A stretch of DNA of 63,998 bases, the filler included, from Folioceros fuciformis (lineage: Eukaryota), in the NCBI GenBank assembly GCA_049999805.1. It is 11 parts of 11 records of this genome, joined end to end, with 100 filler letters (N's around TTAATTAATTAA, not from the genome) between each part and the next. Parts side by side here need not be neighbours in the genome. Positions count along the whole stretch, not along the records: positions 1 to 12,409 come from JBNGIO010003960.1; 10 more parts are not named here. One strand, given 5' to 3'. Positions 1 through 62,858 of the stretch are shown in pieces; the first letter of the stretch is position 1; each line of letters opens with the position of its first letter. The position numbers and the translations under genes are program-made. The notes under the pieces were generated by a model, which was not told where the DNA came from, searched no databases, and saw only the letters and a list, made by a program, of their open reading frames with translations.

Positions 1-188
1 CCCACTCTTATAACCAAACCAACTATTTCCTGGTCAATTAATCTAATTAGCACAAAGAAAAATAGGAAAAATGACCAGAAAATCAAGGAAAATTAGGGAA
101 AATAAGTTGAAAAAGAAAACCAAACCATACCACTATTAACCCTTTTTCAACCGAAACAAACTACTACCCCAAACGTTGGAGGTTCACA

Positions 189-3100
189 AATCCTAACTAA
201 TATTTTCCTGGCGCACAGGCTGCCGCGGGTTTCCACCACGGGTTTCTGCCTAAGGGCTTCCAAACTCACAGATCTGGTCTTATTGGATGCTCTCCACACA
301 TTCAAATGCAAATCCTTGGGAAACAAGACCCCAAGGATCGGCCACACTGCCTCACACAAACATGCAAAACAAGACTCTTCATACTCTTCACACATGCAAA
401 ACACACAAGAGCTTTAGTTCACACTTGTTTCTCACAGGCTTGATTCCAAATGTTTCCTATCTTGCAGCAATGTCCACAAATCTCCAGCAATCCCTCAGAA
501 ATCCTCCACAATCTTCCTCAATCTCCAACAATCTTCCTTAATCTCTTAGCAATCCTCTTCAGTTAGTTGCAGTTGGTTCTTCTCCTTCACTCTCAATCTC
601 TTGCCTCTCACCTCGCATCACATTCAGTGATCAAGCACATTTCTCCTCTCTTGCATCGCGTTCAGTGCTTGGCCACCCTTCTCTTCTTTTCTCAGCTCAC
701 TCACACATCCTCTTCTCACACCTCTTCAATCTTCCTCTTCACACACACTTCCACACTCATAATTTTGGAACACAGCCAGCAGTTCAAGGAATAAGGGAAG
801 GGGAAGCTTCCGAACGTCAGTCCCAATTTCGGGCTCGCCTCCTTGTTGCTGGTCGTCGGCCGGGGCCGTCTGCCGAGACCTAGCTAGGTGACCATGCCCC
901 CCCTAGGTCCGGTCTGCTCAGCTCGCCTGCCTTCGTCCTAATATGCTCCTGTAGTTCGGCCTAGCTTCTAAATCATCTGACCCCAGCCGCCTACCATCCC
1001 GGCCCCTCCTAGCTGTTTTTGGGCCAAGCGATCGACTACCTAAGGCAGCCAACCAGGCCACTGTGCTCATCCGAGACCAGCCACGCCGCCTAGCATCTCG
1101 CTATGAACCTACCCTGGCCAGTTCCTACTAGCCAGACGGCATGCCTGCTCCCCTAGCTGCCGGGCCGCCTCAGCCAGCAGATCCGCACCCTGATCGGCCC
1201 CTGACCGCCTTGCTGCTGCTCAGCAGCTGGTCGCTGCTAAGCCGGCCCCCCTGCTACTCGCCTTGCTGATCCAACCAGACACCCGCCTGCCATGCTGATG
1301 GGCCAGGCTGCCTGCCTGCTAGCTGCCTAGCGGGATCTGCTTGCCAGCCTTTGCCCTACAGCCAGCTGGCCTGCTAGGCTCAATTGGGACCCGAGCTTGG
1401 ATCCTACCGTGGCCTGCTAGACCTGCGGATCCAACGCCGCTTGCCTGGCTTGAATCCGGTGCCGCCGCCTGCCTCTAGCCACTGCCAACACGGCTAGCCG
1501 ACTAGCCGGGCCATCGGCCTGGCTCCCGAATCGGACAGCCAACTCGCTGCGTCCCGATCTGCCCCTACAGTCGGCAGGCGACTGCCTAGCTAGCGCTCCA
1601 CCTGCCAGCCAGCACGGAGTGTAACAGCCCGAGGCCCACCTGCCCATTATGATTTCCACCCCTACCAGTCTGCTTGTCTGTTGGTGGCACCGATCCACTA
1701 GCCCCCCCCGGCTAGCCCATCTACCAAACTCGGATCGGCCTGCAGCTCACCCGCACCCCCTGCAATGGCCCCAACTAGCCAATTAGCCAAAAGGCCCGCC
1801 TGGCTCCAGCCGTGGCTAGCCGTTTCACCATCCACCAACCTCCCTAGCTCACTCCTGGCCAGATCCGATGCCCACTCGGCCTGGTTCCGACCCCGAGCTG
1901 CTACAGCCAACCCGATTGATCGCTTCACGAGAGCCCGGGCTGCCTGACTAGCTTTCAGGACTCGACCCCACCCGCCAACGCCTTCCCCTCGACTCCGACC
2001 AACCCAGCTGCCCAACTCGGCTCCAGCCCGCGCTCCAGCAGCCCGCCTGCCCGTCTAAACCACACCGAGCTGGATCAGCCCGCGTCCTATTGCTGCCTGG
2101 CCGCGCCCGGATGTTGTCACCCCCACTGGCTGATCCACCCCAGCCTCGTGTCCTGACCTGCCTCCAGCCACCGATCTATCCAGCCTGCATGGTCTACCCC
2201 AGCCAGGCACGTGTGTCCCTGATCCGGCCTGCCCTATTCACGTGCAGCAGCTTGGCTTGCTTTAGATCGGCCAGCCAGGCCGGTGGATCCAGCGCCGCCA
2301 CTGCCTGGTGGCTTCTCGCCATGGTCCAGCTCTTTCCCCCATGGCGAGCATAGAAAACATGCTGCAGCTTTTCGCAAGAACCATGAAACCGACTGCACCA
2401 CAGGCAGCCCCGCACCTTCCACCGACCCACGCTAGCTGCCCATTCCTGGCCTACACTGGCCTGGATCGGCCACCAACGGCCAACTCCAAAGTCGCCATGG
2501 CCCGACCTGGTTGGCCCCTCCACAGCAGCCGCCGATCTGGCACCTGCTGTGGTCGGGTCTACCTTCTGCCACAGCCGCCACTGCCCGGTCTCGCCCTCGG
2601 CCCGGATCTGCTCGTCTCCTAGATCCTCCCCCGTCAAGGAGCTCCCCCGGGCTGTTGCCATTGCCGCCATCTACCTAAACTAGCCAGCCACTCCAATCAG
2701 CCGGCCTGCCTGCCGGCTGGCTACCCCTCGAGCTCCCAGACTACCTAGCTCCGGTCGTGAATAACCCCAGCCAGCTCGACCCTCGGCTTGGCTCAGGTCC
2801 ATCCTGGCCAGCTTGGATGCGCCGCCACCACCCGCCTTGCCAGCCACCCATGTGTACCAAGGCCACACACCAACCTTGTTGGCTTCCGGGTCTAGCACCC
2901 TGCTCGACTGCTATGTCTGGATCCGAACGGGACTGCTCACGCCTTGCCTGGCCACCTAACCCGCCCACTACTTCAGTAACAGCCCTAGAGGCCTGCAACC
3001 CCGCGGCCATCTTCGGCCAGGCCCCCTTAGATCCAGCCAACCCCTCGGCCCCGCTCGGTTGCTCGACACGCCTTACTCCTGGGTCTCCATCGGTCGGCCC

Positions 3101-4046
3101 CCTTTGGCTTCGCTGCCCTCCAGACTCGGACTGACCCGCCTCGCAGCGTTGCCTAGCCCAGCTGCATGGCCGCTTGCGCTGGTCTCGAGTCTGCCTTCAC
3201 CTGGCTGGCCTGCTGCATGGCCCAATCGAGTCCCATCCATCCTGGTCCAGCGCCGTCCTCCTCCTGAAACCGACCGCTTCGGCCTGACACGCCACGTCTG
3301 CCAGCCCTCACCGCTTGGATCCACCAAGGTTCGCCTAGCCCAAATCCGACACCACCTCTGCTTCCTGCCTGACTGGACTGGGCTAGGTTGCGGCCTAAGC
3401 TTCCCAACAGCTGCCAACCTGGCTGCCTGCTCCCAGGTCCTCGGCCCCAGGCACCTCGATCTCCATCTTTCGCTTCTCCCAACAAGAGCTAGAGGACCCC
3501 CGGCTCGCCTTCCACGACCCGTCCTAGGGTTTCCTATTCCTCCGTTACCTTACCCTGAGGAACCAGACCCCATGTCCTATCTACCACACAACCTACCTAC
3601 CCTATCGACTCACCATAAATCTAGCTACTATTCTAACCTAATCTCCCAACCTTTTCTCTACAGCACTCACTCACAGATCCAAAAAAAAAAAACCTATTAT
3701 TTCCTAGGGGTCTGTTCAGCATGTGGAGTCCACACATCAGCCTTACAATATCCATGCTATTCCCATCATTCCGGAGTGCCCTCCTACCCTCCTCCAGGAA
3801 TCTAGCCATGGTGTAGAGGAAAAAAACTTTCAGGACTCCCATTTTGAAGGACAGGATGCACAGGTTGTGATTTGTTTTGTGAGAATGCGAGTGAATCGGC
3901 TTAGCTTGTGAATAAGACTTGGGTAGTTATACCCAAAGTCTCCTTGGCCTTTGATGTCGTGGCTGGACTGAGTGACAGGACCAAGGAGTAGTGTGATCGA
4001 GAGTGTCCTTGGCCTTTGGGGTTCGGGGGTTACCAAGGGGTCTATA
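189..4046 (-). mobile_element. Putative long LTR (at least 3.8 kb) of a Ty3/gypsy (Tat/Ogre-like) element
   Basis: On the minus strand, AAGGGGGGG (4053-4061) is followed after 6 nt by TATAGACCCC, which resembles a mutated TGTAGACCCC LTR start. The region continues as GC-rich non-coding sequence and then GA/GT-rich R/U5-like sequence. No second LTR or pol is present to confirm it. Confidence 0.4.
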
Positions 4047-4052
4047 TATGCA

Positions 4053-4061
4053 CCCCCCCTT
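4053..4061 (-). promoter_or_regulatory. Putative polypurine tract
   Basis: Plus-strand CCCCCCCTT reads AAGGGGGGG on the minus strand, next to the inferred LTR start. Confidence 0.4.
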
Positions 4062-4091
4062 GAAAATAAGAAAATAAGAAAGGGGCATGGA

Positions 4092-4220
4092 CTTAGGTAG
4101 TTGTGGACTAAGACAAAAAATCGGGCTGTTGTGACTTGGTAACGGTAGTGGAAGTTGGACCACCGTCATGGAAGGGGAACGGGTGGTAGTGGAATGGGAA
4201 CGGCTAGTATAAAACCCTAG
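4092..4220 (+). promoter_or_regulatory. Conserved upstream region with TATAAAA box (4208-4214) for the large unassigned ORF
   Basis: CTTAGGTAGTTGTGGACT...GTTGTGACT...GTAGTGGAA...AGTATAAAACC is conserved in reverse orientation at about 62637-62758, upstream of copy 3. Confidence 0.5.
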
Positions 4221-4419
4221 GGAAGTCAGAGCGACTTACTCGGTATTCAAAGCAGGAGTGTGACCACGAGTTGGGTGTAGGAGCAGCAGTAGCAGAGGAG
4301 CGCAACCTCGGCTAGGAGTAGAGCAGGCGCAGCTGCAGCGGAGTGGTGTGGAAGGAGAACGACGAACGATTAGCAGGCGTAGGACAGCAGCGACGATCGG
4401 AAGTAGGTGATCAAGCAGA

Positions 4420-6858
4420 ATGAGGGCCATCCCGGAGCTACTGCCAGGAGTAACGGCGATTGAAGAGGAGGAAGGACCTCTTGTCCCGAGGATCAATGCG
4501 GTCCTGTGGCCAAACATGGAGCATTGGAGGGTCAGAGCCGGAGGGCTGGCCGAAGAGCTAGGCCTTGGGCTCATGACCCAGAGGTGGAATCACGCAGCGC
4601 CGCGACTGGTCAGGGAGTGCGCCCTGAGATTGAGGGTGCTAGTCCGCGAGGAAGGAATAAGAGGTAGACCCTAGGACTGGAACCTGGAGCTAATCAGATG
4701 GGTGTATGGGCATGACCAGGGGAAAGAAGGAGGACTCGTGCTGGAGTCCCTGAAGAAGCATAGCACCTTAGCAACCGTCGAGGCGCTGTTTAAGTCTGGC
4801 ACCAGACGGGAGACCAACGGGTGGCTGATCCATGACATGGCCAATCCCCAGCTGATGGGTCTGGCCAGATGGTTTTTGAGCTTCCTCGAGATTCGCAAGC
4901 AGGACTACTTGTCGGACCAAATGCTCCTGTTCGTGCACGAGGTCGTCAAGGGCAGTAAGGTGGACTGGGGAAAAATTTTGTATGCAAGGATGGACAAGGA
5001 GAGGCAAAATTTGGCCCTGCCTTCTCCTCGACCTTTGATGATCTTCCCATTCCTTGTGCACATTTATTGCTATGTTAACCTTCTGCCTGAGCTTGAGGTA
5101 GTTGCCTCCTTGCACATGTGGAGGCCGCTGAGGGACGTTAAGTGGAAACCCGCCGAGCCAGAGGAAGCCGACTCCAGCAGCTAGGAGTCGGGGGGTGCAG
5201 ATAGCTCCAAAGAGGAGACTCCCACCAAATAGAAGAGGAAGGCAGGGATAGGGAAGCGGACTCCTGCCAAAAGAAGACGGACCAGCGGATAGATTACCAG
5301 GGTCAGCGCTACGGGAGGCAACCCCGGAACAGGCTGAACAACAATAGGATGTTGTCCAAGAGTCTGCGGAGCAGGGACATGACAAGGAAGAGCTCGAGGC
5401 ACCTCAGGAGCAGGTGCCAAAAATGGAGGTGGCCCCGCCTGAGGTGATGAGCGAATTAGGGCACGCTCCGAAACAGGAACCCTTCCTAGGATGGAAAGAA
5501 GTTTTTAGAAGAATTCCTCTGGTGGATAGGCTGCAGGCAGCGGACCTGGAGAAGTTGCGGGAGTTGCTGGGGAGGCAGATCACGAACAGGGGAATGGCCC
5601 CTATACAGTCGTAGGAGGTGGATTTGCCGGGACTGACCATAGCAATGGTGCAGGCCCAAGCAGATTTGCTGGATCAGGCGGCCAAGGCGCTGACCTGGTT
5701 GAGCATGCAAGTGAAGAGGGAGGCTGAGGCCCGGAGCAAGGAGGCCGAAGCCTGGAGGTAGCTGGCGGAGTTCGAGACGGCACGGCGACTCCTGGAAGAG
5801 AGGCAGCAGGCCCTGAGTGAGGGCAAGGCACAAGTGGAGGAAGAAGCGCGCTAAGCGAGGGCAGAAATACAAGCACTGAAGGAGCAACAAGGGACACTCC
5901 TAGCTCAGGTGAGGGAAGGCCATGAAACTAATCTGGAGATGCAACAGGAGGTGGCTAGGGCTCAAGAGCAGGAAATGGCTGTAGTGGAACAAAGTCCCGA
6001 AGCTGGCCGATAGGTACAAGCGAGAGCGGGATGAGGCTAGAGAGCGGGTGAAGAGGAAGGGCAAAACTGGGCGAGGTAGTCGAACGGTCACGCCGATAGC
6101 CGAAGGGGCTACCGGTAGTCGAGCGGCAACGGAGGTAGCCGAGGAAACTACCGGTAGAAGAGAGACAACGCCGGTAGTGGAAGCCCCGACCCTGGTAGTC
6201 GAAGAGGTGGTAGCGGAGGTGCCTATGCCCAGACGCACCAGAAGAGCGACTCGTGCCACGAGGACTGAGTAGGGGGAAGCAGCAGCTGGGGGAATGGAGG
6301 ATCCTTCAGTGCCCCAGGAGAGCAGAGGGCAAGCAGCCCGAGGTAGCCCAAGGGAGGAAGGGGTAAGCACCTCCTTCGCGACGGAGGGTCGAGTTGTGCT
6401 GCAGTATGAGGAGGAGGCCACTTATGTGTCGGGCCTCTATGTGGAAGGAGCCCGAGTTCTGAAGTTGTTTTTATGTGTGCGTGTGGGCACAGGAGGGACG
6501 CGGGGCTAAGGCCTGCAATTGAGGACCCACAGGGGGCTATACTACTACCTCTGGCGGGTGTGGGAACTGCCTCACTGCTATTCTGAGGCAGTCCTGGAGG
6601 AACTGATGGATGAGGACGCGCAGCAGTGGGTTTAGCGGGAACCCGTCCTCGTCCTTAGCAATCGGCAACGAAGGGATGAGAGGAGTCCCCTGCGATGGGA
6701 CCCACCTGCGCCGCCGCCAGTGAGGCAGTGGCGAGGTGGAGGTCCTCTGGGAGGACTTGCCCGACCAACGGCGGGGTTGAAGGGCCAGAGGCGGGCCAAT
6801 AAGGGGAGGAGCGTGACGGCCAGGAGGAAGGTGACGGCGGCGAGGAGAGAGGCCATAG
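4420..6858 (+). pseudogene. Retroelement-associated extra ORF, copy 1 (helical N-domain, coiled coil, unassigned C-domain), disrupted
   Basis: ORF pieces 4420-4674, 4702-5184, 5414-5614, 6048-6272 and 6294-6509 are collinear and homologous to the pieces at 57519-59096 and 60369-62437. They are broken by TAG stops and frameshifts. Confidence 0.7.
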
Positions 6859-8300
6859 TAAATGCGATCTAGGCTAGTTTTTTTTAGATTGCTTTTGCTT
6901 GGACCTGAGCTGCGCACAATTAAGAGCGCTGATTGACCCCCTGACCAGACTTTAAGGCGGACGAACCCGCCACTAGCATGTACAAGAGGCCAGTTTGGTG
7001 CCTCAGAAAATCAGCGAGAAACAAGCCCGACATTCCGACCTTGCTGGAGCCTAGTGATGGCCGCTACTGGACAAGGAGGTCCAGGCAAGCAAGCGCACGT
7101 AGTGTCCTGAGGGTGCGGGGTGCTGGTTGTGGATGCTCCGCGACTAAGGGTTCGGGAACAAATCGGGAGGAGGAGCCTTGCTGAGTGGAAGCCGCGCTTC
7201 CCAGCTATTCCCGAAACTGTCGTGTAAGGTGGTGGAGGCCATAGGGACCAAATCCGCCAATCCGAAGTGGAAGGAGTAACCCCTTCCTCTAGTCCCTAAC
7301 GTTTCACTGTCTGCTTAAACCACGAGTGAGAGGAGAAGGAGAGGGCCCAGGCGGGGCGAGTTGGAGGAAGAAAACTAAGAGAGAATGAGCTGATTGAGAA
7401 TCGAGTTGGGAAGAGATTCAGAGAGGCGGTTGTGAGTGTGGAGAAGGAAGAGAGTTGAAGTGCGTGTAAGGTGTGAGCGTAGACCTGAGTGGTTGATGTT
7501 GTAGGAATTGAGTGTGAACGAGAGGTCGTGAATGTAGGCGTCGGAAGAGGGCCTGAAGTGCTAATGAACCGGAGTGACTGGTGGGTCGGTGTGGCTGCGT
7601 GTCGCGGAGGTGAGACAGAGGGCTGAGGGAGTGAATGAATGTGGCTGGGACTGAGATGGAGTGGAGTGAAATGTAAGAGAATGGGGTGTGGAGTAGCTTG
7701 GTCCGAATGTCCCTGAAGAAGGTGTGAGAGTGCGAGTAGATTTGGGGGTCTGGACTGAGGTGGCTGGGTGCCATCGATGTGAATCGTTAGAGAACGGGGG
7801 CTAAGCGGTGTGCTGTGTGAGGGCGCCGTGGCATCGATGGAACCAAGGTCACTGAATGCGAGTGGTGGGAGTAAGTGTGATCAATGAGTGAGTGACCCGA
7901 ACGCAATCCCGAAGAGAGATAAATCCTGACGCGGGTTTAACCAGGGCGTTGCGGCGTAGCTAAGTGCGAGTACTTGGTGGTGATCGTGTAAAGTGGTACT
8001 TGTGTGTGTGTGCGTGGGTCTGTGACTGAGGGACCGAGGGTGCGCGGAGGTGAAAGACACCACAGCGATAATCAGAAGTTGGGTGAAATCAGGAGAGGTA
8101 AGATACTAAGAGCTAGAGAGAGAAATAGGAGAGAGAGGGAGTGGGCCCCTCTGAGGTAGCCGAAACCGCGACTGTCGTAGAGAGACAACGGGGGTAGTCG
8201 AGAGTGGAGGTAGTCAGAGGGCCTTCGGGGTAGCCGAAAGTCGGTAGTTGAAAAGACTCCCCGGTGGCCGAGTAAGTCTAACAGGTAGCCAGGGTCGGGG

Positions 8301-8416
8301 TAGCTAAGTTGGGATGGAGGTAGCTGAGTTGCGATGGAGGTAGCTGAGTTGCGATGGAGNNNNNNNNNNGGAGGTAGCTGAGTTGCGATGGAGGTAGCTG
8401 AGTTGCGATGGAGGTA
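8301..8416. repeat. 20-bp tandem repeat TAGCTGAGTTGCGATGGAGG
   Basis: About 5 adjacent units flanking a 10-N gap. Confidence 0.85.
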
Positions 8417-8629
8417 ACCGAATCGCGATGAAGGTAGAGGTAGTTAAATCGCGGTAGGTAAATAGAGACTGACCTTGGGTATTAATTACCATTGTAAGGA
8501 AACCTCTGTTATTTGACAGAAATCATTTCCTTAGAATCATATCACAATGCTATAACAACAAAAGAGAGTTTATGTGGACTTCGCAACACCCCGGGTGCAA
8601 TATTTTCCCCCACACATAGCCTCTTGCGT

Positions 8630-10445
8630 GTTTGCCCCACGTTCAGAAGTTTTCCAATGTTGGAATACCTATTCAACAAGTGATCACCATTTAGCTATGC
8701 AGCTATTTGTACCAACTCTTCTTGGAACTTTGTTAGTTTGTCAAGCTCATTTGGTGGTGAATGCCTTGGTGCCCAAGGTGGGCCTGGTAGAGTAGCTGCA
8801 CAGCACAACCAAGAGCCAGATTAGAACTAGTAACCTCGTTCATCCCGTTCATCCCACTCACGGGGCACAACCAAATACTAGGTGAGTGCCAACTTCGTTC
8901 AGACCATGTGAACTATGAAGGTCATGCCACAAACCTGGACAGTTGATCCTCGCCATTCTACGAAAGATATTTTCAAAAGTCCCAGCCCATGCATCCCTGT
9001 CTATCAGGAATGGACTTGAGGAGAGCTCAAACTTGGAAGTCAGGAAGGGCCCAATGGGATCATGCACAACTCCAGAACAGGAATGTGACCACAGTCAAAT
9101 GTCATGGGCTAGTGCAAGGAGTGTGCACCCAGAGCATACTGAAAACAGCCAAAAACAAACAGGGAAGTGAAGAATACCTGTTCCCTTGTCAATCCAAGGG
9201 GAAACCATAATTGTCGGTACACGTACACCCAATCGATCAAATTTGAAACAGAAAGGTTCGGGCCCAAAAAGGTTCGGGCCCAATTCGACGTTGGGGACAT
9301 CCTCAGTAGTCGTGGGGACATGGTCGAAGAATCCACCATGCTCATCATAAGTTATCAGAAACACCATCTCCTTCCACTGAGGGCTGCTCCTTAGGATCTC
9401 GTACACTTCCTTAATGAAGGATTGTTCCCCGGAAACATCATGAGAAGGATGGTCATCATTTCTCCTTCCACTGAGGGCTGCTCCTTAGGAACTCGTACAC
9501 TTCCTTAATGAAGGATTGTCCCTCGGAAACATCATGAGAAGGATTGTCATCATTTGCAGGCAATAAGTTGGTATCAAAGTAGCCTTGCTCTCTGACAACA
9601 TAGTTCGGAAGCAAGCCTAGCTTTGCATGCAACTTGAAGGTGAGAGAGTAGGCATGAAATTTAGTGATGTACTTCAATTGCCGGAGTTCCTTGAAGAAGA
9701 GCGTAGCCGGGATATTTTGATAGTAAATGCCGAAAGAGAGACCAGCATCATCAATAACCTCCATGATGGGCTTTTGCGGAAATCCATCCATCAAATCTTG
9801 CCTGTTGTTGCTCATAGCCCCATGAGACGTGGCAGAGTGAATGTAAAACCGATTAGGCTGAGTAGACGCTGGAACTGAAGCATACCATCTGCACAGGAAA
9901 ACGGCTCAGCTGACAGAGGTGCGCTGAGCAGGTCACACCAGAAGCCACAAAAGCAAACAACAACCACAACCCCTGCCAGCGAGAGTGCCTTACTTGTCAA
10001 ACACAGCATACTCCATTGCCAATGCCGTGTGAATAGGCACCACTTCGGGCCTAAACCCACTCATGACCTTTCTCGAAAAGCCTTCCTACATGCTCTCCGC
10101 CTGCTACGCAAACCCTTTCATCGGAGGAGGCTTGGCCGCAGTGTCCTCCGAGCCAAAGATTTGCTCCCGCATAGCTTGAAACGAATGACCAGGGTTGGGA
10201 TCCACGAATTCCAACGAGTCTGCAAAGAAAATTCGGGGCGAGTCGGGATCTGTGACATTCAAGTAGTTCCATTCCTCCCCCGTCACTCCGTCAATTTCCG
10301 GATTCAACCGCTTCAACCATCCCAGCATATGATCGAAGGACCGATTGACCTGTACAAGAATCACCACGGTCTTGATAGGCCCGTCGATGGTGAGCTTCTT
10401 AGCCAGAGCTGGCAGCAGCAAGAGTAAAATCCTTCGGGACTTCAT
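8630..10445 (-). pseudogene. NPC: Non-specific phospholipase C (phosphoesterase family) pseudogene, intron-containing
   Basis: Motifs [79 protein letters not shown] and FQEELVQ-LNGDH. Intron-like segments at about 9891-9993 and 9069-9177. In-frame TAG stops near 10104 and 10086, and a ~94-bp frameshifting duplication. Confidence 0.9.
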
Positions 10446-11917: not shown

Positions 11918-12081
11918 CCTTTTTCTAATTCGCGTAAAGCTCCAAGGTGGGCCGAGCTTTCTAATTCTCGTACAACTCCAAGAAGGGCCGAGCTTTTTGA
12001 TTCGTGATTCGCGTACAGCTCCAAGGTGGGCCGAGCTTGAGCCGAGCTTTCTAATTCGTGATTCGCGTACAGCTCCAAGGT
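11918..12081. repeat. Imperfect ~33-45-bp tandem repeat (GAGCTTTCTAATTCG..TACAGCTCCAAGGTGGGCC)
   Basis: About 4 visible units. Confidence 0.75.
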
Positions 12082-12133
12082 TGTACGAGCTTCCAACACC
12101 ATATGATCACAATGTTGGAGCATTGATGGTTTG

Positions 12134-51552: not shown

Positions 51553-52542
51553 CTTGTGTGCACGGCAAACAATTTAAATCTCATTTTGGATCTGGTAAGC
51601 CTGGGAGACAAACACAAGTGCTGGATTTAGTGCATACTGGCATATGTGGTCCTATGTCTACTCCAAGTTGGGGAGGAGCCAGGTACTTTGTGGTGTTTGA
51701 GGATGACTGCACACATTTTACAGTAACTGAGCTGTTGAAACATAAGAGTGACGTATTTGATAGTTTTAAAAGATACCTGGCATATGTCAAACGTCAGACA
51801 GGCTATCAGTTGGAATGCATCCATTCGGATAATGGGAAGGAATACCTATCACATGCATTTCAGGAGTTTTGTCAGGAACGTGGCATTACTAGACAGCTTA
51901 CAATCCTGTGGAATGTGGGTTTTTGGCAAATAACCGTAGTAGGTAGGGAGCGGCTAATAATATTTTTAGTTTTGTTTGGTCTTGGTTTGGTAGGTTAGAT
52001 GAGTGGCGATAATAAGGGGTAGTATTATAAAGAAGTTACCTTCTTTGGGATGGCTACCTATAGGGAGGTATGCCCACGTAGGGAAGATATCTCTATGGGA
52101 GGTAGTACCCAAATAAGAAATATAGTTGTGAAGGGCAAGCTACCTACAGAAAAGGGGACACCTATGTACGGTATCTATTAAGGGCAGTTACTACATATAG
52201 AAGTATACCTACGACAAGAGGGTATTTAAAGGGGTCCCTACCTAAGGTGTCCCATCAACGAAGGGTGCTCACTTCCACGTAGGGAACTACATCTACCTAC
52301 ATAGCGGGGAATAAGGAGGCATAGTTGTGCGACAAGACACCTACGCAGGGGATCTACTTGTTGTGACCAAGCGGACACAAAGAGAGAGAAAGGGCTTTGC
52401 TGTGGTGAGAGCCACAGGGAGAAACGTGCAAGGGACGTGAAATCAGCTGCACAGAAGCTGGGAGCAGTTGCCTACGGAGGTAGGGGTATAACCTTGCGTA
52501 AAGGAGGGCAACCGACATTCTTGGGGTTTTCTTCTATCAACT

Positions 52543-54807
52543 ATGGCGCGGACCTCCAACAATACTCAGGTGGGTTCCGGTAGTAGGGGACGACCCACGA
52601 GGGCAGCCAGCTCTCCCCAAACCAATGTTCCGTCCTTTTCTTGCTTTGGGGGCCAACTGAACTCAAGGGATTTGATAGACCTACAAACTTGGGCATGTGA
52701 CGCAAACATCCAGGTTGACTGGATATATGGCAGACACTGGTCGTATGTTCATGAAGGCTTGGTGAAGGAGTGCTATACCAACCTACAGCAATCAAAGGAG
52801 GAGTTGGAAGCCCTACCTGAACGAAACGCGAGGACTAACCCTCGGTGTTGGATTGTCCGGAGCATCCGACAGGTCTATGGTAGGTCGGAAGAGGAGAGCG
52901 ATGGTTTAGGGATCCTGGATAAAACCATAGATGGGCGGAGGTCACCTAGCACCACCCTACCATCTGGGGCACTAGAATTGCTGTTGGGAGGAGAGCTAGC
53001 AAGAACCAAGAACGGGTGGAGGACTAAGGGGATCAAGGAGCTCAAATGGCGGTTGTTCACTTAGGTGGTTCTTGGATTGGTGAACTATCAATGCACCTCA
53101 TATTTCAGCAATGCTTTCCTCCACTTCCTTTGGAGAGTGACTCAAGGAGCTAAGCCAGACTGGGGGTTAATTATGTATGAGGCGTATACCTACCATAGGG
53201 AGAAGTTGCTCAAGCCAAATGGTAGGGAGGGGGGGAGTGCACGTCCTTGCTACCTCTCGACTTACTTGGTGCACTTATGGAAGACAGAAGGGTTGTTAAC
53301 ACAAGAGGAGTTGGAGGAGGCGGAACAACCTTTTGTAGTTGTCCCGTTGCAGGGGGAGACTTTTATTTCTGGTGGACTGTCGACCCCTCTTACGGATGAG
53401 GAGTCCCCACTTGATTCCGAATCAACCATGGCAGCCTATGATGAGTCTGATGAAGATGACACCCCGTTGATACGGAGACCTAGGGAGCAGCAAAGGGACC
53501 GAAGGCTACCATCAGTCACCACCCTCGCAGCCCTAAATTCCGCCCCAACTGAGATCTAGACAGTGAGGGATCCTGGACCAAGCCAACCAATAGTTGAGGT
53601 AGGGTACTAGGTAGGGGATTTGGCGATGACACCAGTAGTGCAAGCACACCGTGGAGCACCAGATTTGGGGAGAAGGAGCCCAGGGAATTGGGAAGCAGCC
53701 CGAGGAGCACACGCCACAAGCCAAGGTAACGATACTTCGTTGGGAGTATGGAGCAACATCATTCAGTGTGGCCAACAGCTACAACACATCAATTGGGGAG
53801 AGGCCCGTGCAATGATTGCAACCCTACTACAGGAGGACATAAGTCGGGATGCAAACCAGGCACGACTAGAATCCAAAGTGGAGGAATTGGAAAACGAGCG
53901 AGAACAGTATCTCCTCAAGGATGGTGAGCAAAGGCAAGGACTGGAGAAGTTGACCCAACATGTGACCACATTGCAAACTTCCCAACAAGGTTTATCACAT
54001 GAGATCATTGCATGTCGAAGGGACCTTGCCCAGTCTAAGGAAATTAGGAAGGTGATGGAGGAACAGCTACGGGAACAAGTCTACATTGCAAAGGATTTAC
54101 AAGGCAAGCTAGATGAGTTGGAGGCATAGAATGCTAAAGCGAACCAGGAACTCCAGCAACGACTTGAAGCAGGGCAATGAGAGCGAGTGGAGAGGGAACA
54201 ATTGACCATCCAATTAGAAGACCTTCAGTAGGAGAAAGCACAACAAGAAGCTGAGCATCAGACCAAGATTCACAGGATGCTGGGGGTTCGAGCTCGTAGG
54301 TTTCGTGCTGACTATGCCTACTTGACGGGGTGCATGACCAAGTTTCATGCAACTCATCAAGAAAACCTTGACCTACAGTTGAAGGTAGGGGCGATGGAGG
54401 CTGAACGGGATATCTACAAGAGTAGATGCGAGGGTGGGGATTGGGTTGTTGACATGGATACCATAGATCTAGCTCATCAGAATCGCAACCTCCACCTACA
54501 CCAACGTTTACTTGCTCATCACAAGGAACTGGCAGCACTGGCAGGGCGAAGGTATCTTGGGCCACATGATGACGATCGTGAGGCCCTGGAGACAGTGCCT
54601 CTACCAACAGACTTTCAAGAGGACAACAGTATGGACCTGGAGAACTCGCAATGGGAACCTAAGGAGTTGCTATGGGCTAGGAAGAGCACGCAACAAAGGG
54701 TGCCTACTCCCATAGGGAACCTACCTACGAGAGGAGGGGTAGGGAACCTACCTACGAGAGGAGGGGTAGGAATGGTGTTGAATAGAACCCCGTTAGGGTT
54801 TAGTTAA
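52543..54807 (+). pseudogene. Diverged paralog of the retroelement extra ORF (helical N-domain and long coiled coil)
   Basis: Pieces 52543, 53065, 53620 and 54277 are all in one frame (about 750 codons). They share LV.EC, R..P..W....IR.VYG, NGW, V..G.K.DWG.I.Y and LVH motifs with 4420-5184. Confidence 0.75.
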
Positions 54808-54970
54808 GATAAACGTCACAGCTGTTAGCTGATAGTTGTATAAGCTTAGGTCAGCTGAACAGTCATGACTCTTCAGGAGAGTAAGTATGTAAGACTTCTT
54901 TAGAGCTTAATTAATTGAATTTTTAATATACATCTTGACTACAAGAGTATTGCTCTCATGTTTATCAACA

Positions 54971-57444: not shown

Positions 57445-59096
57445 GGGCAACCCTGGAGCAGAAGGGCCAGCAGGAGGGAGGACGAGAACCAGAAGTCCAG
57501 GGAATTTAGGACCGAAGGTTGGAGGAGCAAGGTCAGGGTGAGACAAGACCCGAGGGGCCACAGGATCAGGTGATGGCAGCAGACACAGTTTCCTCCACAC
57601 AGGAGGATAAGTTAGGGCGCGTTTCAACACAGGAGGGTTTCTCAGGGTGGGAGGACATTTTCAAGTGCAGGCCTCAGGGAGACAGGTTGCAGGTGGGGGA
57701 CTTGGACAAGTGGCGAGAATTCCTGGGCAGACAAATCACGGCAAGAGGAATGGGCACCGGAGGGGTGCAGGAGGTGGACCTACCCGGGCTGACTGCTGCG
57801 ATGGTGCAAGCCCAAGCAAACCTCCTGGATCAAGCTGCTAGGGCCCTCACCTGGTTAAGTGTACAAGCAGAGCGAGAAACCGAGACTCGAGGAAAGGAGG
57901 AGGAGGCTCGTGAGCGAGAGGTTGAAGTAAGGAGGCAACTGGCGGAGTCGGAGACAGCGCGGCAACTGCTGGAGGAGAAGCAACGGGTCCTGGACAGGGA
58001 GAAGGCTCAAGCCGAGGAAGAGGCGCGCGAGGCGAGGGCTGAAGTGCAGGCGCTGAAGGAACAACAGGGGGCCCTGCTAGCTCAGGTGAGGGAGGCTCAC
58101 GAGGCTAACCTGGAGTTGCAACAGGAAATGGCTAAGGCAGAGGAGATGGAGATAGTCGTTGTGGAGCAGGCCCAGAAGTTAGCTGACAGATACAAGTGAG
58201 AGCGAGATAAGGCCAGAGAGAGAGCGAAGGGGAAGAGCAAGGCTGGGCGCCCGAGTCAGTCGACGACCCCGGTAGCAGAAGGGGCTACCGGTAGCCGAAC
58301 CAAGGGAACGGTAGTCGAGGAGGCTACCGGTAGCACGGTAGTCCACGGGACTACCGTTAGTCGGGTAGCCGACGGGGCTACCGGTGGCCCAGCAAGGCCC
58401 AGGATAGCTGAGGAACCAACCCTAGAGAAGAAGGAGGCAGCAGTAGGGGTGCCTGCCCCTAGGCGCTCTAGGAGGGTGGCCCGTACCAGGAGAACAGAGC
58501 TGGAGGAGGCAACAGCGGGGCAGGCAGAGAACCTTCAGGTACCCCAGGAGGAGGGGGAGCAGGCAACCCGAGGTAGCCCAAGGGAGGACGGGGTAAGCAC
58601 CTCTGTTATGACAGAAGGTCGGATTGTGCTGTAGTATGAGGAGGAGGCCTCCTATGTGCCATGCCTATATGTAGAAGGGGCCAGAGTTCTGAAGCTGTTT
58701 CTGTATGTACGTATGGGCACAGGAGGGACGCGGGGCTACGTCCTACAACTGAGGACGCGCCTGGGACTCTACCACTACAGATGGTGGGTGACAGGGCTGC
58801 CCCACTGCTATGCGGAGGCAGTTCTGGAGGAACTGACGGAAGAGGAGGCCCAGCGCTGGGTAGAACGGGAGCCTGTGGCTATCCTCAGCAACCAGAGAAG
58901 GAGGAGGGGTGGTGGACCACAGTGGCGGGACCCACCTACGCCGCCAGCCAGGCCAAGCAGTAGCAGCAGTGATGTGGAGATCCTTTGGGAGGATCTGCCG
59001 GACCAACGGAGAGGCAGAAGAGCGAGAGGAGGAGCGGCGAGGGGTGACGTGCTAAGGCCAGAAGGAAGCCATCAGCGGCGTGGGACAGGGCGATAG
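57445..59096 (+). pseudogene. Retroelement extra ORF, copy 2 (coiled coil and C-terminal domain; 5' part cut by the scaffold end)
   Basis: Pieces 57519, 58449 and 58656 are in one frame and homologous to 5414-6858. Confidence 0.75.
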
Positions 59097-60469
59097 TAAA
59101 TGCAGGCTAGATTAGTTTTTTTTGGTGTGCTTTATTTGGACCCAAGTCGCTCAAAACTTAAGAGCGCACCTCCCCTATCTGACAGACTTTATGGCGGGAA
59201 AACCGCCATCATCGTGTACAAGAGACCGGTTTGAAGGCCTAAGAAAGGAGCAAGAACCAGCCGGATAATCGACCCTGCAGGGACCTAGCGATGGCCGTTG
59301 CTGGACGGGAGGTCCAGGCAAGCGAGCGCACGTAGCAACCTGGGGTGCGGGTGTAGGTGGTGGGCGCTCCGTGATCAGGTCCGGGGACGAATCGGGAGGA
59401 CGTGCCTCGCCGAGTGGGAGAGAAGCTCCCCAGCTATCCTCGAAGTGATCACGTGGTTGGTGTGGGTGATGGAGCCGAATCCGCGAGTTTGGAGTGGAAG
59501 GGATTCCTCTTCCCTTAGCTCCGGTACCTCACCATTCCTCAACGTTCATAGGAGCCCAGGAGGGGCATCGCTGAGAAAGAAGACGAAAGAACCGGAGAAA
59601 GAGGAAGCGCGAGGGTGCGCGTGTGTGAGAAAGGGGAGAAACGAGTGACCGAGTAATGAGTAAGGGCGAATGTGAAGGGACGCCAAAAGGAGTGGAAGNN
59701 NNNNNNNNNNNNNNNNNNNNNNNNNNNNNNNNNNNNNNNNNNNNNNNNNNNNNNNNNNNNNNNNNNNNNNNNNNNNNNNNNNNNNNNNNNNNNNNNNNAC
59801 TGATGAGTGGAGAAGAGAGAGCAAAGCGGGTGAGATCCTGGGGCGAGGTGAGTAACGTGTCTGGGGTATAATGAGGTGTGGCAAGTGACTGATCGCGGTG
59901 AGAAGTCGTGAAGAAGTTGAATTGAGACCGCAGAGGGTGTATCTAAGGTGTGAGATCCCTCGGGTGGAAGGCGACCGGCAAATTGTTGCTGTTCATGTGT
60001 GCGTGCATTTGATCCGGAGGAGTGAGGGGCGGCTTTGTGGAGAACCAAGGAAGGGAAGCGCAAAGGGAATGCGGGGAAAAAAACGGTCGGAAAGGGACGA
60101 CTCGGAGAGAGAAAATTCTAGAGAGAGAGAGAGGACCCACGAGTGGTAGCCCGAAAGACAACGGTAGTAGCCCCCTGGGGAACGGAGGGTAGCCCAGTGG
60201 GCAACCAAGAGTAGTCCAGGGGGAGGTAGTCCCTGGAGCGACCGAGTGGTAGAGGAGTCGCCTAGAGGAAGAAGTAAGGGGGCTTGGTAAGGTCCGAGCA
60301 TTGGACGTGTGTGGGTGGGTCAGTCGAGTTTTATGTGTTGGCTGACTTTAGAAGCTGAAATGTGTAGTTTAACACAAATCATTCCAGTGGGATCGAATCC
60401 CAGAGCTACAACGACATAGAGGGCTTGTGGGGACCTCGCGGTACCCTTGGGTACCATATTTTAACCCCA

Positions 60470-62437
60470 CAGGAGCCTCCACCATCACTTCTTTGGCTAC
60501 CGGGGTCGTGGCTTCGGCTACTGCCGTCGTCCCTCCTCTACCAGTAGCCCCTTCGGCTACCTCGGGTGTTGTGAGACTACCGGTAGCACCTTCGGCTACC
60601 GGTGTGGCCATTCAACTACCAGTAGCCCTGTCGGCTACCGACACTGTTGCTCGGCTATCGGTAGCCCCGTTGGCTACCGGTATTGGAACTAGACAACTGG
60701 TAGCCCCTTCGGCTATCGAGGTCGTCGTCTGGCTACTGCACCCAACCTTACCCATTCCCTTTACTCGCTCCCTGGCCTCGTCTCGCTCTCGTTTGTACCT
60801 GTTGGCCAGCTTCTGGACTTGTTCCATTGCAGCCATCTCCTACTCCTGAGCCTTAGCCATTTCCTATTGCATTTCCATATTAGTCTCGTGGGCTTCCCTC
60901 ACCTAAGCTAGGAGCAACCCCTATTGCTCCTTCGGCGCCTGGATCTCTGCTTTAGCCTGGCGCGCCTCTTCCTCCGCCTGCGCCTTATCCTCACTCAGGA
61001 CCCACTACTTCTCTTCCAGGAGCCGCCATGCCGTCTTAGACTCCTCCAGCTGTCTCTAGGCTTCGGCCTCCTTTCCTATTGCCTCTGCCTTCTTACTTCG
61101 AGCCTCGGCCTCCCTCTCCACTTGCATGCTCAGCTAGGTCAGCGCCTGGCCGCCTGGTCCAACATGTTCGCTTGTGCCTGCACCATGGCTGAGGTTAGTC
61201 CTAGCAGATCCACCTCTTGTGACCCCACAGGAGCCATTCCCCGCTTGGTTATCTGCCTCCTCAGCAGCGCTCGTAACTTCTCCAGCCCCCCTGCATGTAG
61301 TCTATCCACCTGAGGAATTTTTCCAAAAAACATCTTCCCATTTTGGAAAGACTTCTTGCTCCGGAACGTGCCCTAATTCACTCATAACCTTAGGAGGGGC
61401 CACTTCCATTCTGGCATCTGCTCCTGGGGTGCTTCTAGCTCCTCCTCGTTCGGTTCCTGCTCTACTGGCTCTTGGTTTGCTGGCTCTTGAGCAGCTCCCT
61501 ACTCCTGCTCAGCCTAATCCGGGGCTGCCTCCTATGGCGCTGACCTGCTTCCTCTCTTAGCAATTTGGCCACTGGCCCGTCGCCTCTTGGCAGGGGTCTT
61601 CTTCCCTACCCCTGCCTTCCTCTTCCGCCTGGTGTGAGTCTCCTCCTCCGGGCTGTCCGCACTGCCCGACTCCTAGCTGCTGGAGTCGGCTTCCATTGGC
61701 TTAGCGGGCTTCCACTTCACATCCCTTATCGGCCTCCACATATGCAGTGAGGCAAGCACCTCTAGTTCAGACACGAGGTTAGCATAGCAGAAGATATGGA
61801 TTAGGAAGGGAGAGATCATCGAAGGTCGGGGAGAGCACAGAGTCAGATTATGCCTCTCCTCATCCATCCTAGCATACAGGATTTTTGCCCAATCCATCTT
61901 GCTCCCTTTGACAACTTCATGCACAAATAGGAGCATCTGATTAGACAGATAATCCTGCTTGCGAACCTACAGGAAGCTCAGGAACCATCTGGCCAAACCC
62001 ATCAACTGGGGGTTGGCCATATCGTGGATCAACCACCCATTGGCTTCCTTCTTGGTGCCTGGTTTGAGTAGCACCTCGGCGTCTGCTGTGCTGCCACGTT
62101 TCTTCAGGGACTCCAGCACTAGTCCGCCCTCCTCCTGCTGATCGCGACCATACACCCGCCTTACCAACTCTAGGTTCCATTCCTAGGGCCTGCCACGGAT
62201 TCCCTCTTCTCGGACGGGCTCTCTCAACTTCAGGGCGCACTCCCTGACCAGTTGTGGCGCTGCATGGTTCCACCTCTGGGTCATGAACCTGAGGCCTAGT
62301 TCTTCGACCAGCCCTTCGGCTCTAACCCTCCAGTGCTCCATGTTGGGCCACAAGAGCACGTCAATCTTTGGAACAGGAGGTTCTCCCTCCTGCTCAGGCA
62401 GCATTACTCCTCGCAGCAACTCTGGACGAGACCTCAT
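60470..62437 (-). pseudogene. Retroelement extra ORF, copy 3 (N-domain, coiled coil, expanded repeat; C-domain missing)
   Basis: WPNMEHWRVRA, NGWLIHDMANPQLMGLARWFLSFL and DWAKILYARMD are nearly identical to copy 1. Confidence 0.78.
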
Positions 62438-62858
62438 CCTTCCTGATCTCCTCCCATGCTCCGAACGCCGCTGCCCTCCTGCACCTGTGGTCGCCTGGCG
62501 TTCTCCGCCCGCTCTGCTCCACTGCCTTAGCGCCCGCTCCGCTCCTGACCGTCCTCGCGCTCCGCGGCTACTCTCGCTCCCGCTCCTCTTGCGGACGCTC
62601 CTGCCTCATTTACTGCCTAGGTTCCCTTGACTCTCTCTAGGTTTTATACTGTTGTTCCTGTTCCACTACCGCCGATTGGGCTGCCGCCAGTTCCCCTTCC
62701 ACGACGGTCACCCAGTCACAACACTCCGATTTTCGCCTAAGTCCACAACTACCTAAGCNNNNNNNNNNNNNNNNNNNNNNNNNNNNNNNNNNNNNNNNNN
62801 NNTTAATTAATTAANNNNNNNNNNNNNNNNNNNNNNNNNNNNNNNNNNNNNNNNNNNN

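Follow-up and report, generated by a model that had tools for sequence, protein, structure and literature searches.

A large ORF recurs in a 63,998-nt stretch of Folioceros fuciformis DNA (GCA_049999805.1; 11 parts of 11 records joined end to end), hereafter the window, and the question is what kind of sequence carries it. The original prediction regarded 4046-7310 as an accessory gene of a Tat/Retand/Ogre-type gypsy element, lying antisense in the stretch from pol to the 3′ LTR. The analysis reported here places this interval in the interior of a decayed multi-copy mobile unit (copy 1, Table 1). The reading that we favour, with a probability of about 0.6, is that copy 1 represents, in decayed form, a repeated mobile unit of 4.8 kb with a single VANC-like gene, and not an antisense gypsy gene.

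The predicted three-copy repeat family is real, as copies 1–3 are close relatives with 71–74% DNA identity by blastn. Copy 1 aligns with copy 3 (4092-6177 with 62757-60635; 74.4% identity, 2140 nt) and with copy 2 (5456-7215 with 57612-59444; 70.7% identity, 1862 nt). A fourth, divergent member was found at 52543-54807 on the plus strand, with 31% amino-acid identity over 81 residues. Copy 2 is nested within copy 3, and copy 4 lies within a copia integrase whose break point forms its left edge, while a nested copia cuts copy 4 15 bp past its stop codon. Copies 2 and 3 are truncated by assembly gaps (N runs 57345-57444 and 62759-62858). Summed contig depth over 4141-7452 was 270–2500 vs 12–23 in unique DNA. 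Matching by contigs of other copies ends at 7404, and depth at 7453-8280 is at single-copy level.

The ends of copy 1 were obtained from an empty site. One contig each from X1 and X2, which are one sample, connects 3811 with 8632 across 20 other letters, and the same empty site is read as loose ends by the RNA run X4 of another sample. Because the public contigs show this site as a single CCATGG/CCTC (the slash marks the joint), in which 3811 runs on at about 8620, copy 1 is a discrete insertion at 3812-8614; the empty-site sequences are 85–95% alike and so represent a paralogue or another strain rather than the ancestral allele. Homology between copies 1 and 2 ends exactly at ...CCCCACA, just before the right target duplication. 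The unit begins with TG and ends with CA, its inverted terminal repeats are complementary at 12 of 14 positions, and the 5-bp target duplication carries one mismatch (CATGG/CATAG). The terminal-repeat pattern is confined to the two ends of copy 1, and none of 100 shuffled sequences contained two matches. Both ends are visible in this copy only. The unit was inserted as one piece, with TG...CA ends, an imperfect 14-nt inverted terminal repeat and the 5-bp duplication.

Table 1. Features of copy 1, its insertion site and the other family members in the window.
Feature	Position	Strand	Basis or remark
Copy 1, complete mobile unit, 4803 bp	3812..8614	+	empty-site joint and end sequences
Target DNA, 77 bp, between two insertions; holds pyrimidine tract	3735..3811	.	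joint contigs, loose ends at 3735
Left target-site duplication CATGG	3807..3811	.	empty vs filled site
5′ terminal inverted repeat TGTAGAGGAAAAAA	3812..3825	+	pattern search
5′ non-coding region, TATAAAA 4208-4214	3826..4419	+	from 4092: 69% identity to copy 3
N-domain, VANC/PMD-like helical	4420..5181	+	TAG stops at 4672 and 5182
Basic bipartite patch KRKAGIGKRTPAKRRR	5233..5280	+	also kept in copy 3
E/Q/R/A-rich coiled-coil-like segment, frame 2 of copy 1	5615..5995	+	dN/dS 0.15 vs copy 2
Repeat linker of GGTAGYCGA-type DNA repeats	6075..6230	+	
C-terminal domain and ORF end (TAG 6856, TAA 6859)	6405..6861	+	
Conserved 3′ non-coding region	6862..7404	+	75% identity to copy 2 over 6862-7215
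Variable region, G-rich, C-poor; 20-nt tandem repeats 8299-8437	7405..8506	+	
Conserved 3′ terminus with nested stem-loop (TGTGG...CCACA)	8507..8614	+	
3′ terminal inverted repeat TGTGGGGGAAAATA on minus strand	8601..8614	-	pattern search
Right target-site duplication CATAG, 4/5 match	8615..8619	.	filled site
Copy 2: ORF part 57447-59099; intact 3′ terminus; 5′ part in assembly gap	57445..60471	+	
Copy 3: split in linker by copy 2; 5′ end in assembly gap	60472..62757	-	
Copy 4: distant member, ORF 52543-54807	51907..54821	+	

These boundaries bear directly on the gypsy placement, in which the copies in the window would be fragments of an antisense gene of the pol-to-3′-LTR region. A minus-strand PPT and an LTR had been proposed about 150 nt upstream; the supposed PPT falls within the 77-bp stretch of target DNA, at a distance of 45 nt from the insertion to the left of 3735, and this insertion, separate from copy 1, is the supposed LTR. 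No pol was found inside or alongside copy 1, and no gag, pol or transposase Pfam match was obtained in 1-9100 for the 25 reading-frame pieces covered (20 ORFs of at least 90 aa in the flanks and five ORF-frame pieces in the unit; nine opposite-strand ORFs over 4239-7010 lay outside the scan). A gypsy-type integrase fragment does occur at 13385-14050; however, it is 5 kb off, past a host gene. The N-domain with a coiled coil, the own promoter and the downstream tandem repeats recall the antisense ORFs of Retand and Grande, as described in the consulted parts of PMC11963269 and PMC7264820, yet PF04195 was matched by none of the 30 proteins scanned. The self-contained insertion without gag, pol or transposase match contradicts the antisense placement for copy 1, and we regard this placement as very improbable; the copies in the window show no association with LTR/gag-pol. 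What survives of the original prediction is an accessory gene that is carried by a transposon and has a promoter of its own: the unit is mobile and its TATA-containing region is conserved.

The upstream sequence AGTATAAAACC, which holds the TATAAAA, is kept in copies 1 and 3, in agreement with what had been noted before, and the 5′ non-coding region of copy 1 has a weak likeness to that of copy 4. The ORF of copy 1 spans 4420-6858 (813 codons). In its translation, the previously quoted motifs of the N-domain (RWNHAAPRLVREC, RGRP*DWNLELIRWVYG, NGWLIHD, DWGKILY and PFLVHIY) and the basic patch were all located. This patch, judged by its motif, resembles a nuclear localisation signal. Coiled-coil Pfam families match copy 4 weakly, under their cut-offs. 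The linker includes a 39-nt tandem repeat at 6075-6157, and the C-terminal block is kept in copies 1 and 2; Pfam and Atlas gave no match for this domain. The ancestral protein had about 810 aa, within the 800–850 codons originally estimated, with a helical N-domain, the NLS-like patch, a coiled-coil-like stretch, the repeat linker and a C-terminal domain. The unit carries this one gene, preceded by a TATA-containing region of its own, and no enzyme for replication or transposition.

Comparison between copies gave a dN/dS of 0.12 for the N-domain (bootstrap interval 0.08–0.19) and 0.13–0.31 for five other gapless segments, far under 1. Since frame-shifted controls gave 0.57–1.64 vs 0.12–0.31 in the coding frame, the ORF of about 810 codons evolved as a working gene, under purifying selection over its whole length during subfamily divergence. 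The copies decayed afterwards, chiefly by CAG>TAG-type transitions. All four copies in the window are pseudogenes, none being intact: there are 13 premature stops and three or more frameshifts in copy 1, three stops in 549 codons in copy 2 and six stops in 754 codons in copy 4. Purifying selection, together with liverwort relatives annotated as stand-alone genes, could also be expected of an ordinary host gene family, segmentally duplicated and immobile. We consider this scarcely credible in view of a contig depth tens of times that of unique DNA, the nesting of copies 2 and 4, the empty site with target duplication and inverted termini, and the death of every copy.

A phmmer search against 1.84 billion representatives returned nine matches at E ≤ 1e-3 (best 2e-9), and a profile search matched 16 Riccia sorocarpa proteins, one of them already in the query alignment. 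The named relatives are Riccia and Marchantia proteins, one called a plant-mobile-domain protein by UniRef, and the motifs align across the family. No Pfam family reached its cut-off in the 30 proteins scanned. PF20167, a candidate of the original prediction, shows a distant, sub-threshold likeness to the N-domain (E 0.003, profile positions 3-162 of 177, 17.9 bits vs a cut-off of 45) and was matched by two of the 30 proteins, both from the window, while PF04195 and PF10536 had no match at E ≤ 1 in any of the 30. In these searches, no characterised family was matched over the full length. Atlas listed a DUF1985 cluster at 0.88. In two models of the N-domain, the nearest solved fold was that of VANC. 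Foldseek searches of the PDB returned nothing at E ≤ 1e-3 with either model; with the first, VANC21 came 22nd (E 2.5, probability 0.20), and the five matches listed for the second did not include it, and the family profile found no sequence match in VANC21.

The class of the element can be read in several ways. In plants, 5-bp duplications with TG...CA ends are the signature of LTR retrotransposons, and no plant DNA transposon superfamily is known to make 5-bp duplications. The ends, inverted repeat and duplication of copy 1 may be marks of a retroviral-type integrase, and copy 1 a solo LTR from a large LTR retrotransposon, carrying the gene in sense. This is a serious possibility, somewhat short of even odds. 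Against it, a primer-binding site was seen beside neither of the two visible 3′ ends and a PPT beside neither of the two visible 5′ ends, no direct-repeat partner of the unit was found in the window, and no plant LTR with a selected ORF was found among the publications listed.

Rather less likely is a non-autonomous cut-and-paste element that has 14-nt inverted termini plus subterminal motifs and depends for its movement on a transposase from elsewhere; its gene would encode an accessory DNA-binding protein comparable to VANC in VANDAL or TnpA in CACTA. The terminal inverted repeat, the abutment of all four visible ends on target DNA and the closeness of the fold to VANC, a DNA-transposon accessory protein, agree with it. 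So does a subterminal inverted 20-mer (3921-3940 vs 8471-8490, 17/20) placed about equally far from the two ends, but this match is weak, 14 of 300 shuffles scoring as high, and no transposase was found in the 110 ORFs scanned of 139 with at least 90 aa across the window.

The 3′ end invites another comparison. The terminus of copy 1 matches 60363-60479 of copy 2 at 70.6% over 119 nt (E 7e-13), and the variable region before it has its counterpart at 59589-60362. The terminal stem-loops fold as DNA at −3.3 and −9.9 kcal/mol, their inner stems differing in sequence between the two copies. A conserved stem-loop of this kind, the coiled-coil architecture and the want of an own enzyme would suit an ORF1-only non-LTR retroelement, or half-LINE, with its 3′ stem-loop recognised in trans by a LINE reverse transcriptase; LINE-type insertion also allows target duplications of variable length. 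Such an element is nevertheless highly improbable, as neither the 12/14 inverted termini nor a 5′ non-coding region that is intact over about 600 nt and holds TATA boxes would be expected, a poly(A) or simple-repeat tail is absent and the N-domain fold looks DNA-binding, not RNA-binding.

Under the preferred reading of a mobile unit with a VANC-like gene, the product is probably a DNA-binding, coiled-coil protein, like plant-transposon accessory proteins used against silencing. We tentatively propose, with rather less than an even chance for the proposal as a whole, that the VANC- and PMD-like N-domain would bind DNA motifs of its own family, with GGTAG-type repeats in the linker and 3′ region as candidate targets, and that the protein would multimerise through its coiled coil. 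The resulting complex would either shield family members from silencing, in the way that VANC protects VANDAL transposons, or help to assemble an insertion complex, as TnpA does for CACTA.

Several known systems offer parallels. If copy 1 is a solo LTR, the LTR of mouse mammary tumour virus, which encodes a superantigen (sag), would be a precedent for a protein-coding ORF within an LTR, although it is an animal retrovirus, its protein is unrelated and the sag ORF is far shorter. Mutator-like elements make 9-bp duplications, and there VANC sits by a transposase; the present gene stands alone, with 5-bp duplications. Like VANC21 of the Mutator-like Arabidopsis VANDAL21 (sequence-specific anti-silencing, DUF1985), it would encode a transposon-borne accessory protein, but it has no Pfam DUF1985 match. 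A globular helical part occurs in both together with a coiled coil, or in the present protein a coiled-coil-like stretch; the coiled coil multimerises VANC according to the consulted part of PMC13547354. There VANC is described as dicot-specific, whereas relatives of the present family come from liverworts. VANC also has variable tandem-repeat regions, with target motifs arrayed in the non-coding DNA of its element (PMC5735166), to which the tandem repeats and candidate targets of the present family would compare. For the PMD proteins (PF10536; MAIN/MAIL1/MAIL2 and gypsy PMD-A), the link is the Riccia relative P0003, the one so named by UniRef, but PF10536 itself is unmatched, and MAIN and MAIL are host genes without a long coiled coil. 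The part of bioRxiv 10.1101/2024.09.27.615353 consulted likens the MAIL1 PMD-C domain to the VANC DUF1985 domain and gives PMD-A as encoded by gypsy retrotransposons; in that of PMC13547354, VANC resembles MAIN, and VANC and the Athila domain both multimerise through coiled coils, Athila's by prediction. The Athila extra ORF (PF20167 Transposase_32 / PF03078 ATHILA ORF-1) is approached through PF20167, the only near-full-length, if sub-threshold, Pfam match to the N-domain, which a sunflower Athila 3′ extra ORF also matches (PMC11728184, in part); unlike the present unit, Athila ORFs lie in full-length gypsy elements with gag-pol, in sense orientation. The extra ORFs that run antisense in Retand, Grande and RIRE2 (Transposase_28, in some with an SMC-like coiled coil) share the own promoter, nuclear hints, coiled coil and nearby tandem repeats, as far as the cited portions of PMC11963269 and PMC7264820 go; the former reports TRP28 only from flowering plants, and those ORFs lie between pol and LTR, unlike the gene of this self-contained unit.

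The limits of the insertion that carries the ORF (copy 1) were obtained from Logan contigs of four coded sequencing runs, X1-X4, aligned to 1-12400 at 80% likeness or more. X1 and X2 stem from one sample, while X4 is an RNA run of another sample; that it is RNA is clear from one of its contigs, in which the neighbouring gene of the phosphoesterase family is spliced. The contigs revealed that the ORF region is repeated many times, the summed contig depth (see the table) not being a copy number. In one contig each of X1 and X2, 3811 is joined to 8632 with 20 other letters between, which represents the empty site, and loose ends of X4 read the empty-site junction CCATGG CCTCTTGAGTGT. The filled site reads ...GC CATGG, followed by the unit from TGTAGAGGAAAAAA to TATTTTCCCCCACA and then by CATAG CCTCTTG..., and comparison of the empty and filled sites therefore defines the unit as 3812-8614 (4803 bp). 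Its termini are TG...CA, with TGTRGRGGAAAA ends, and form a 14-nt inverted terminal repeat that agrees at 12 of 14 positions, both mismatches being transitions. The target duplication, CATGG/CATAG, is 5 bp long with four letters matching, and CATGG is present in one copy only in the empty site. The inverted-repeat pattern was found nowhere else in the window, and two matches were obtained in none of 100 shuffles.

Over the last 108 nt, the 3′ terminus is shared with copy 2 (8507-8623 against 60363-60479, 70.6% identity, E 7e-13). In each of the two the homology breaks off precisely at ...CCCCACA, which puts the end of copy 2 at 60471 and its site of insertion in the linker of copy 3. Both 3′ ends fold as a nested stem-loop, the inner stem of which differs in sequence between the copies. 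In both, conserved 3′ non-coding sequence (to ~7404) is followed by a variable, G-rich and C-poor stretch with GGTAG-type repeats.

The original prediction had placed the ORF antisense beside a PPT and an LTR, between pol and the 3′ LTR of a Tat/Retand/Ogre gypsy element, and this placement is not supported within the window, where none of the copies has a gag-pol of its own. In X1, X2 and X4, contigs covering 3735-3811 have loose ends that continue into unlike sequence beyond 3735 on the left; the 77 bp at 3735-3811 are hence target DNA, bordered by an insertion on either side. They include the supposed PPT, a tract of pyrimidines at 3780-3798 that is rich in purines when read on the minus strand. 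The adjoining C-rich DNA on the left belongs to another element, with the minus-strand end TGTGGACTCCACA. Copy 1 is bounded by its target duplication, and pol is absent from the unit and from an 8.3-kb gap-free stretch. In a Pfam search of 20 ORFs of at least 90 aa (1-4235 and 7014-7880) and five ORF-frame pieces of the unit, the only match was the host gene beyond 9098. Hence, no LTR or PPT is linked to the unit at this site. Within the window, copies 2 and 4 adjoin other repeats.

Several observations were made on the neighbouring DNA. The introns (GT..AG) of the phosphoesterase-family (PF04185) host gene were read from the spliced X4 contig, and its 3′ end crosses a high-copy repeat (8632-9108 plus 3735-3811) in which both insertions landed. 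The C-rich repeat has a depth of ~115-270 against 12-23 for unique DNA, a palindromic terminus ending at 3734, and no match to Pfam or to the family HMM; it begins TGTRGA, as copies 1 and 4 do, and may have been moved by the machinery of the ORF-bearing unit. At 1-414 the summed contig depth of X1 reaches ~73,000 and exceeds that of unique DNA by a factor of thousands, which indicates either an extremely abundant repeat or a low-complexity stretch drawing many contigs.

Coordinates of the features and segments of summed contig depth (the depth is not a copy number)
Feature	Position	Strand	Remarks
Depth, unique DNA	7453-8280 and 9109-12000		12-23
Depth	4141-7452		270-2500
Depth	3313-4140		800-1640
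Depth	8281-9108		200-1000
C-rich repeat	415-3734	-	terminus TGTGGACTCCACA
Host gene, phosphoesterase family	8632-10722	-	
Copy 1, ORF	4420-6858	+	read in four frame segments; 13 premature stops; at least 3 frameshifts
Copy 2	57445-60471	+	549 codons read; 3 premature stops; no frameshifts
Copy 3	60472-62757	-	
Copy 4	51907-54821	+	754 codons read; 6 premature stops; no frameshifts
Copy 4, ORF (distant member)	52543-54807	+	layout as in other copies; N-domain 31% identity over 81 aa
39-nt tandem repeat (linker)	6075-6157		
GGTAG/CTACC repeat sites	6075-6230, 8140-8460, 58240-58420, 60100-60620, 52000-52330, 54700-54770		
tRNA-iMet primer-binding site	22252-22263	-	
tRNA-iMet primer-binding site	49014-49025	+	
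tRNA-iMet primer-binding site	54971-54982	+	
Copia LTR	48773-49013		241 bp, AT-rich, starts TGTTAG
Putative copia LTR	54822-54970		149 bp, starts TGTTAG; GC 0.31-0.38 vs ~0.5 in ORF
Gypsy-type integrase fragment (Integrase_H2C2, rve)	13385-14050	-	
Class II aminoacyl-tRNA synthetase exons (tRNA-synt_2b, HGTP_anticodon)	37131-38189	-	
Near-identical duplicates (91-100%) flanking 100-N gaps	45312-45692/45797-46177, 55418-55718/55819-56119, 62859-63378/63479-63998		

Copy 1 is thus a discrete, repeated insertion unit with integrase-like ends and one formerly selected gene, and it carries no enzyme. It is unlikely to be either a half-LINE-like element or part of a plain host gene family. In plants, LTR retrotransposon integrase is recognized by a 5-bp duplication combined with TG...CA ends; as copy 1 has both, it is most simply read as a solo LTR, to which we assign a probability of about 40%. 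The LTR-type features seen are the TG...CA inverted repeat (12/14) and a target duplication of the 4-6 bp class, seen at a single copy and with one mismatch. A direct pair of units around PBS...PPT was not found in the window, where a PBS adjoins neither of the two visible 3′ ends and a PPT neither of the two visible 5′ ends. An LTR pair within copy 1 was tried and rejected: no significant direct repeat was found between its ends (with the terminal 200 nt, a score this high was reached in 76 of 300 shuffles), and a gapped alignment of 3897-4407 with 7951-8437 (score 78, best shuffle 76) is an effect of composition. LTRs of 4-5 kb exist. A selected 2.4-kb ORF within one would be new; among the entries listed by a full-text search of the literature there was no plant LTR with a selected ORF, which is weak evidence for absence. 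The main alternative to the solo LTR, a non-autonomous inverted-repeat element, is somewhat less likely; the terminal inverted repeat is present, and no transposase was found among the ORFs scanned in the window. No superfamily of plant DNA transposons is known to make duplications of 5 bp. A Helitron, which makes no target duplication and has a 3′ hairpin, was dropped because of the 5-bp duplication and TG...CA ends; the flanks, moreover, are G and C, not A and T.

The repeat family itself was confirmed by two strong blastn matches of the region elsewhere in the window, 4092-6177 with 62757-60635 (74.4% over 2140 nt) and 5456-7215 with 57612-59444 (70.7% over 1862 nt). The protein motifs listed in the original prediction were found in the translation, as were the basic patch KRKAGIGKRTPAKRRR, the E/Q/R/A-rich stretch, the repeat linker and the conserved C-terminal block. 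The TATA-containing upstream region, AGTATAAAACC (TATAAAA at 4208-4214), is likewise kept between copies 1 and 3. Conservation extends into non-coding DNA, with 69% identity upstream (4092-4419, copy 1 vs copy 3) and 75% in the 3′ part (6862-7215, copy 1 vs copy 2). A search of the six-frame translation with the family HMM matched only copies 1, 3 and 4 and gave no further family copy in the window. The sequence of the window is of draft quality, from a plant-like genome, and broken by many gaps (N runs); besides fragments of copia and of a gypsy-type integrase it contains two host genes, and copies 2 and 3 are interrupted by assembly gaps. The gap-flanking duplicates are assembly artefacts, and the order and orientation of the pieces between gaps are therefore not trustworthy.

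All copies are pseudogenes. Among the 22 premature stops in copies 1, 2 and 4 (4420-6861, 57447-59099 and 52543-54807), 15 are TAG; this, together with the absence of frameshifts from copies 2 and 4, suggests decay mainly by C>T/G>A transitions (methyl-cytosine deamination) and less by indels. Two TAG stops are common to copies 1 and 3. These might have pointed to read-through or to an already dead common ancestor; both readings were set aside (P ~0.24, assuming that stops are drawn from a pool of 12 CAG-type codons), since shared stops are not surprising if stops come from so small a pool. Nei-Gojobori analysis of the N-domain, the helical N-terminal part of the protein, gave a dN/dS of 0.12 (bootstrap interval 0.08-0.19) at a dS of 1.06 between copies 1 and 3, and five other gapless segments (copies 1 vs 2 and 1 vs 3) gave 0.13-0.31. 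For identical segments, the two shifted frames gave 0.57-1.64, far above the 0.12-0.31 of the coding frame. Therefore, the ORF was evolving as a protein-coding gene at the time when the subfamilies diverged, and decay of the individual copies came after their insertion.

After the distant copy 4 comes ...GTTTATCAACA/TGGTATCAGAGC, which represents an exact tRNA-iMet primer-binding site. Copia 5′ ends are marked by such a site three times in the window, twice next to a short, AT-rich LTR that starts with TGTTAG. An ORF lying inside the 5′ LTR was suggested by the adjoining site at 54971 and was rejected on the resemblance of 54822-54970 to the neighbouring copia LTR. Given this AT-rich sequence and its TGTTAG start, like those of the 241-bp LTR, the simpler reading is that a copia with a 149-bp LTR is nested 15 bp past the stop codon of this copy. 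At its 5′ end (TGTGGAATG at 51907), copy 4 begins where a copia integrase is broken, and its 5′ region shows a weak likeness to the one of copy 1, with a score of 17 that none of 200 shuffles reached.

The identity of the protein was approached by profile, sequence and structure searches. No Pfam family matched the ORF protein at cut-off, and none matched the C-terminal and linker pieces. Among 30 proteins scanned (the window copies and their relatives), PF20167 (Transposase_32) matched copies 1 and 3 with 17.9 and 17.6 bits (E 0.003 and 0.0038), below the gathering cut-off of 45 bits, over profile positions 3-168 of 177; the other 28 gave no match. PF04195 (Transposase_28), PF10536 (plant mobile domain) and PF09331 (DUF1985) matched none of the 30 at E <= 1.

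A phmmer search of 1.84 billion representatives gave nine proteins at E <= 1e-3 (best 2e-9), and a profile search gave 16 proteins of Riccia sorocarpa. The named relatives are hypothetical proteins of Riccia and Marchantia; one from Riccia (P0003) is named a plant-mobile-domain (PMD) protein by UniRef, which is the source's label and not a domain test. The relatives have in common a layout of N-domain, acidic/basic linker and coiled coil, and motifs such as LGxGFL..RW, LV+E, RG.P..W, NG[WY], [VI][DN]W and PFLVHLY. A DUF1985 cluster at 0.88 in an Atlas feature search is a lead only, and the C-terminal domain had no usable Atlas match. The N-domain structure was predicted as two models, neither of which matched the PDB in Foldseek at E <= 1e-3, and a profile search of PDB sequences returned low-complexity and coiled-coil noise only, VANC being absent. 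Protein and profile queries of the longer length classes of homologous proteins gave no match, which is weak evidence and bears only on gag-pol-fused forms. A single-protein scan of metagenome loci of another relative, P0026, gave 80 pattern matches, none of them confirmed.

These families are linked in the literature: PMD-A is described as retrotransposon-borne and the PMD-C domain of MAIL1 as similar to the VANC domain DUF1985 (bioRxiv 10.1101/2024.09.27.615353), VANC resembles MAIN and, like the Athila domain, is predicted to multimerise via extended coiled coils (PMC13547354), and PF20167, which is called related to ATHILA ORF-1, is reported in an extra ORF of sunflower Athila (PMC11728184). 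The N-domain is outside every curated family, and with moderate confidence we assign it to the broad VANC/PMD/Athila-type group of transposon-linked helical domains.

As for expression, X4 has one 472-nt contig on 6628-7039 with 56 differences, too little to claim that the ORF is expressed, and no RNA source is listed for the stretch. Where X3 contigs on 1-12400 depart from the window, the changes are nearly all G>A in the C-rich part and C>T in the G-rich part, and many are seen at full depth. A bisulfite-converted library gives such a pattern, so X3 could provide methylation calls for the family.

In all four copies, short GGTAG/CTACC repeats recur both in the coding linker and outside the coding sequence, with a density of 8-15 per kb compared with ~1-2 per kb elsewhere; they are candidate binding sites of the encoded protein. 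By analogy with known accessory proteins, this protein would be nuclear, would bind DNA motifs of its own family via the VANC/PMD-like domain and would multimerise through the coiled coil, and the complex would either counter silencing, as VANC does, or help to build the insertion complex, in the manner of TnpA. We regard this joint functional reading as tentative, at somewhat short of an even chance. It is doubtful, with the odds clearly against, that the family represents mobile elements whose sole cargo is a VANC/PMD-like accessory gene, for which two formats may be envisaged. In the first, giant retrotransposon LTRs would each constitute a promoter-ORF-terminator gene, and solo LTRs would still make the family-protecting factor; in the second, an accessory-gene-only element would ride on the integrase of another element. 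Either format, if true, would place VANC/PMD-type counter-silencing in non-seed plants and in a new genomic format.

The transposon family is real and moderately interesting, although the original prediction had misplaced it, and for annotation the region is a decayed repeat, not a gene. What is new is the lineage, whose closest named relatives are liverwort proteins of ~25% identity, the stand-alone unit with integrase-type ends and the clear purifying selection on the ORF. To our knowledge, accessory proteins such as VANC, PMD-A, Athila ORF1 and the antisense ORFs of Retand/Grande are the least understood products of plant transposons and have been described almost exclusively in flowering plants. 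If the likeness to the VANC fold is real, transposon-host interplay of this kind would be much older than the dicot-specific VANC, and the intact liverwort homologues would offer a tractable system for the role of such proteins. The building plan matches that of these accessory proteins, a helical domain, predicted to be probably DNA-binding, followed by a coiled coil; the family would resemble the accessory proteins of VANDAL, Athila and Retand/Grande in its proposed working, while belonging to none of their curated families.
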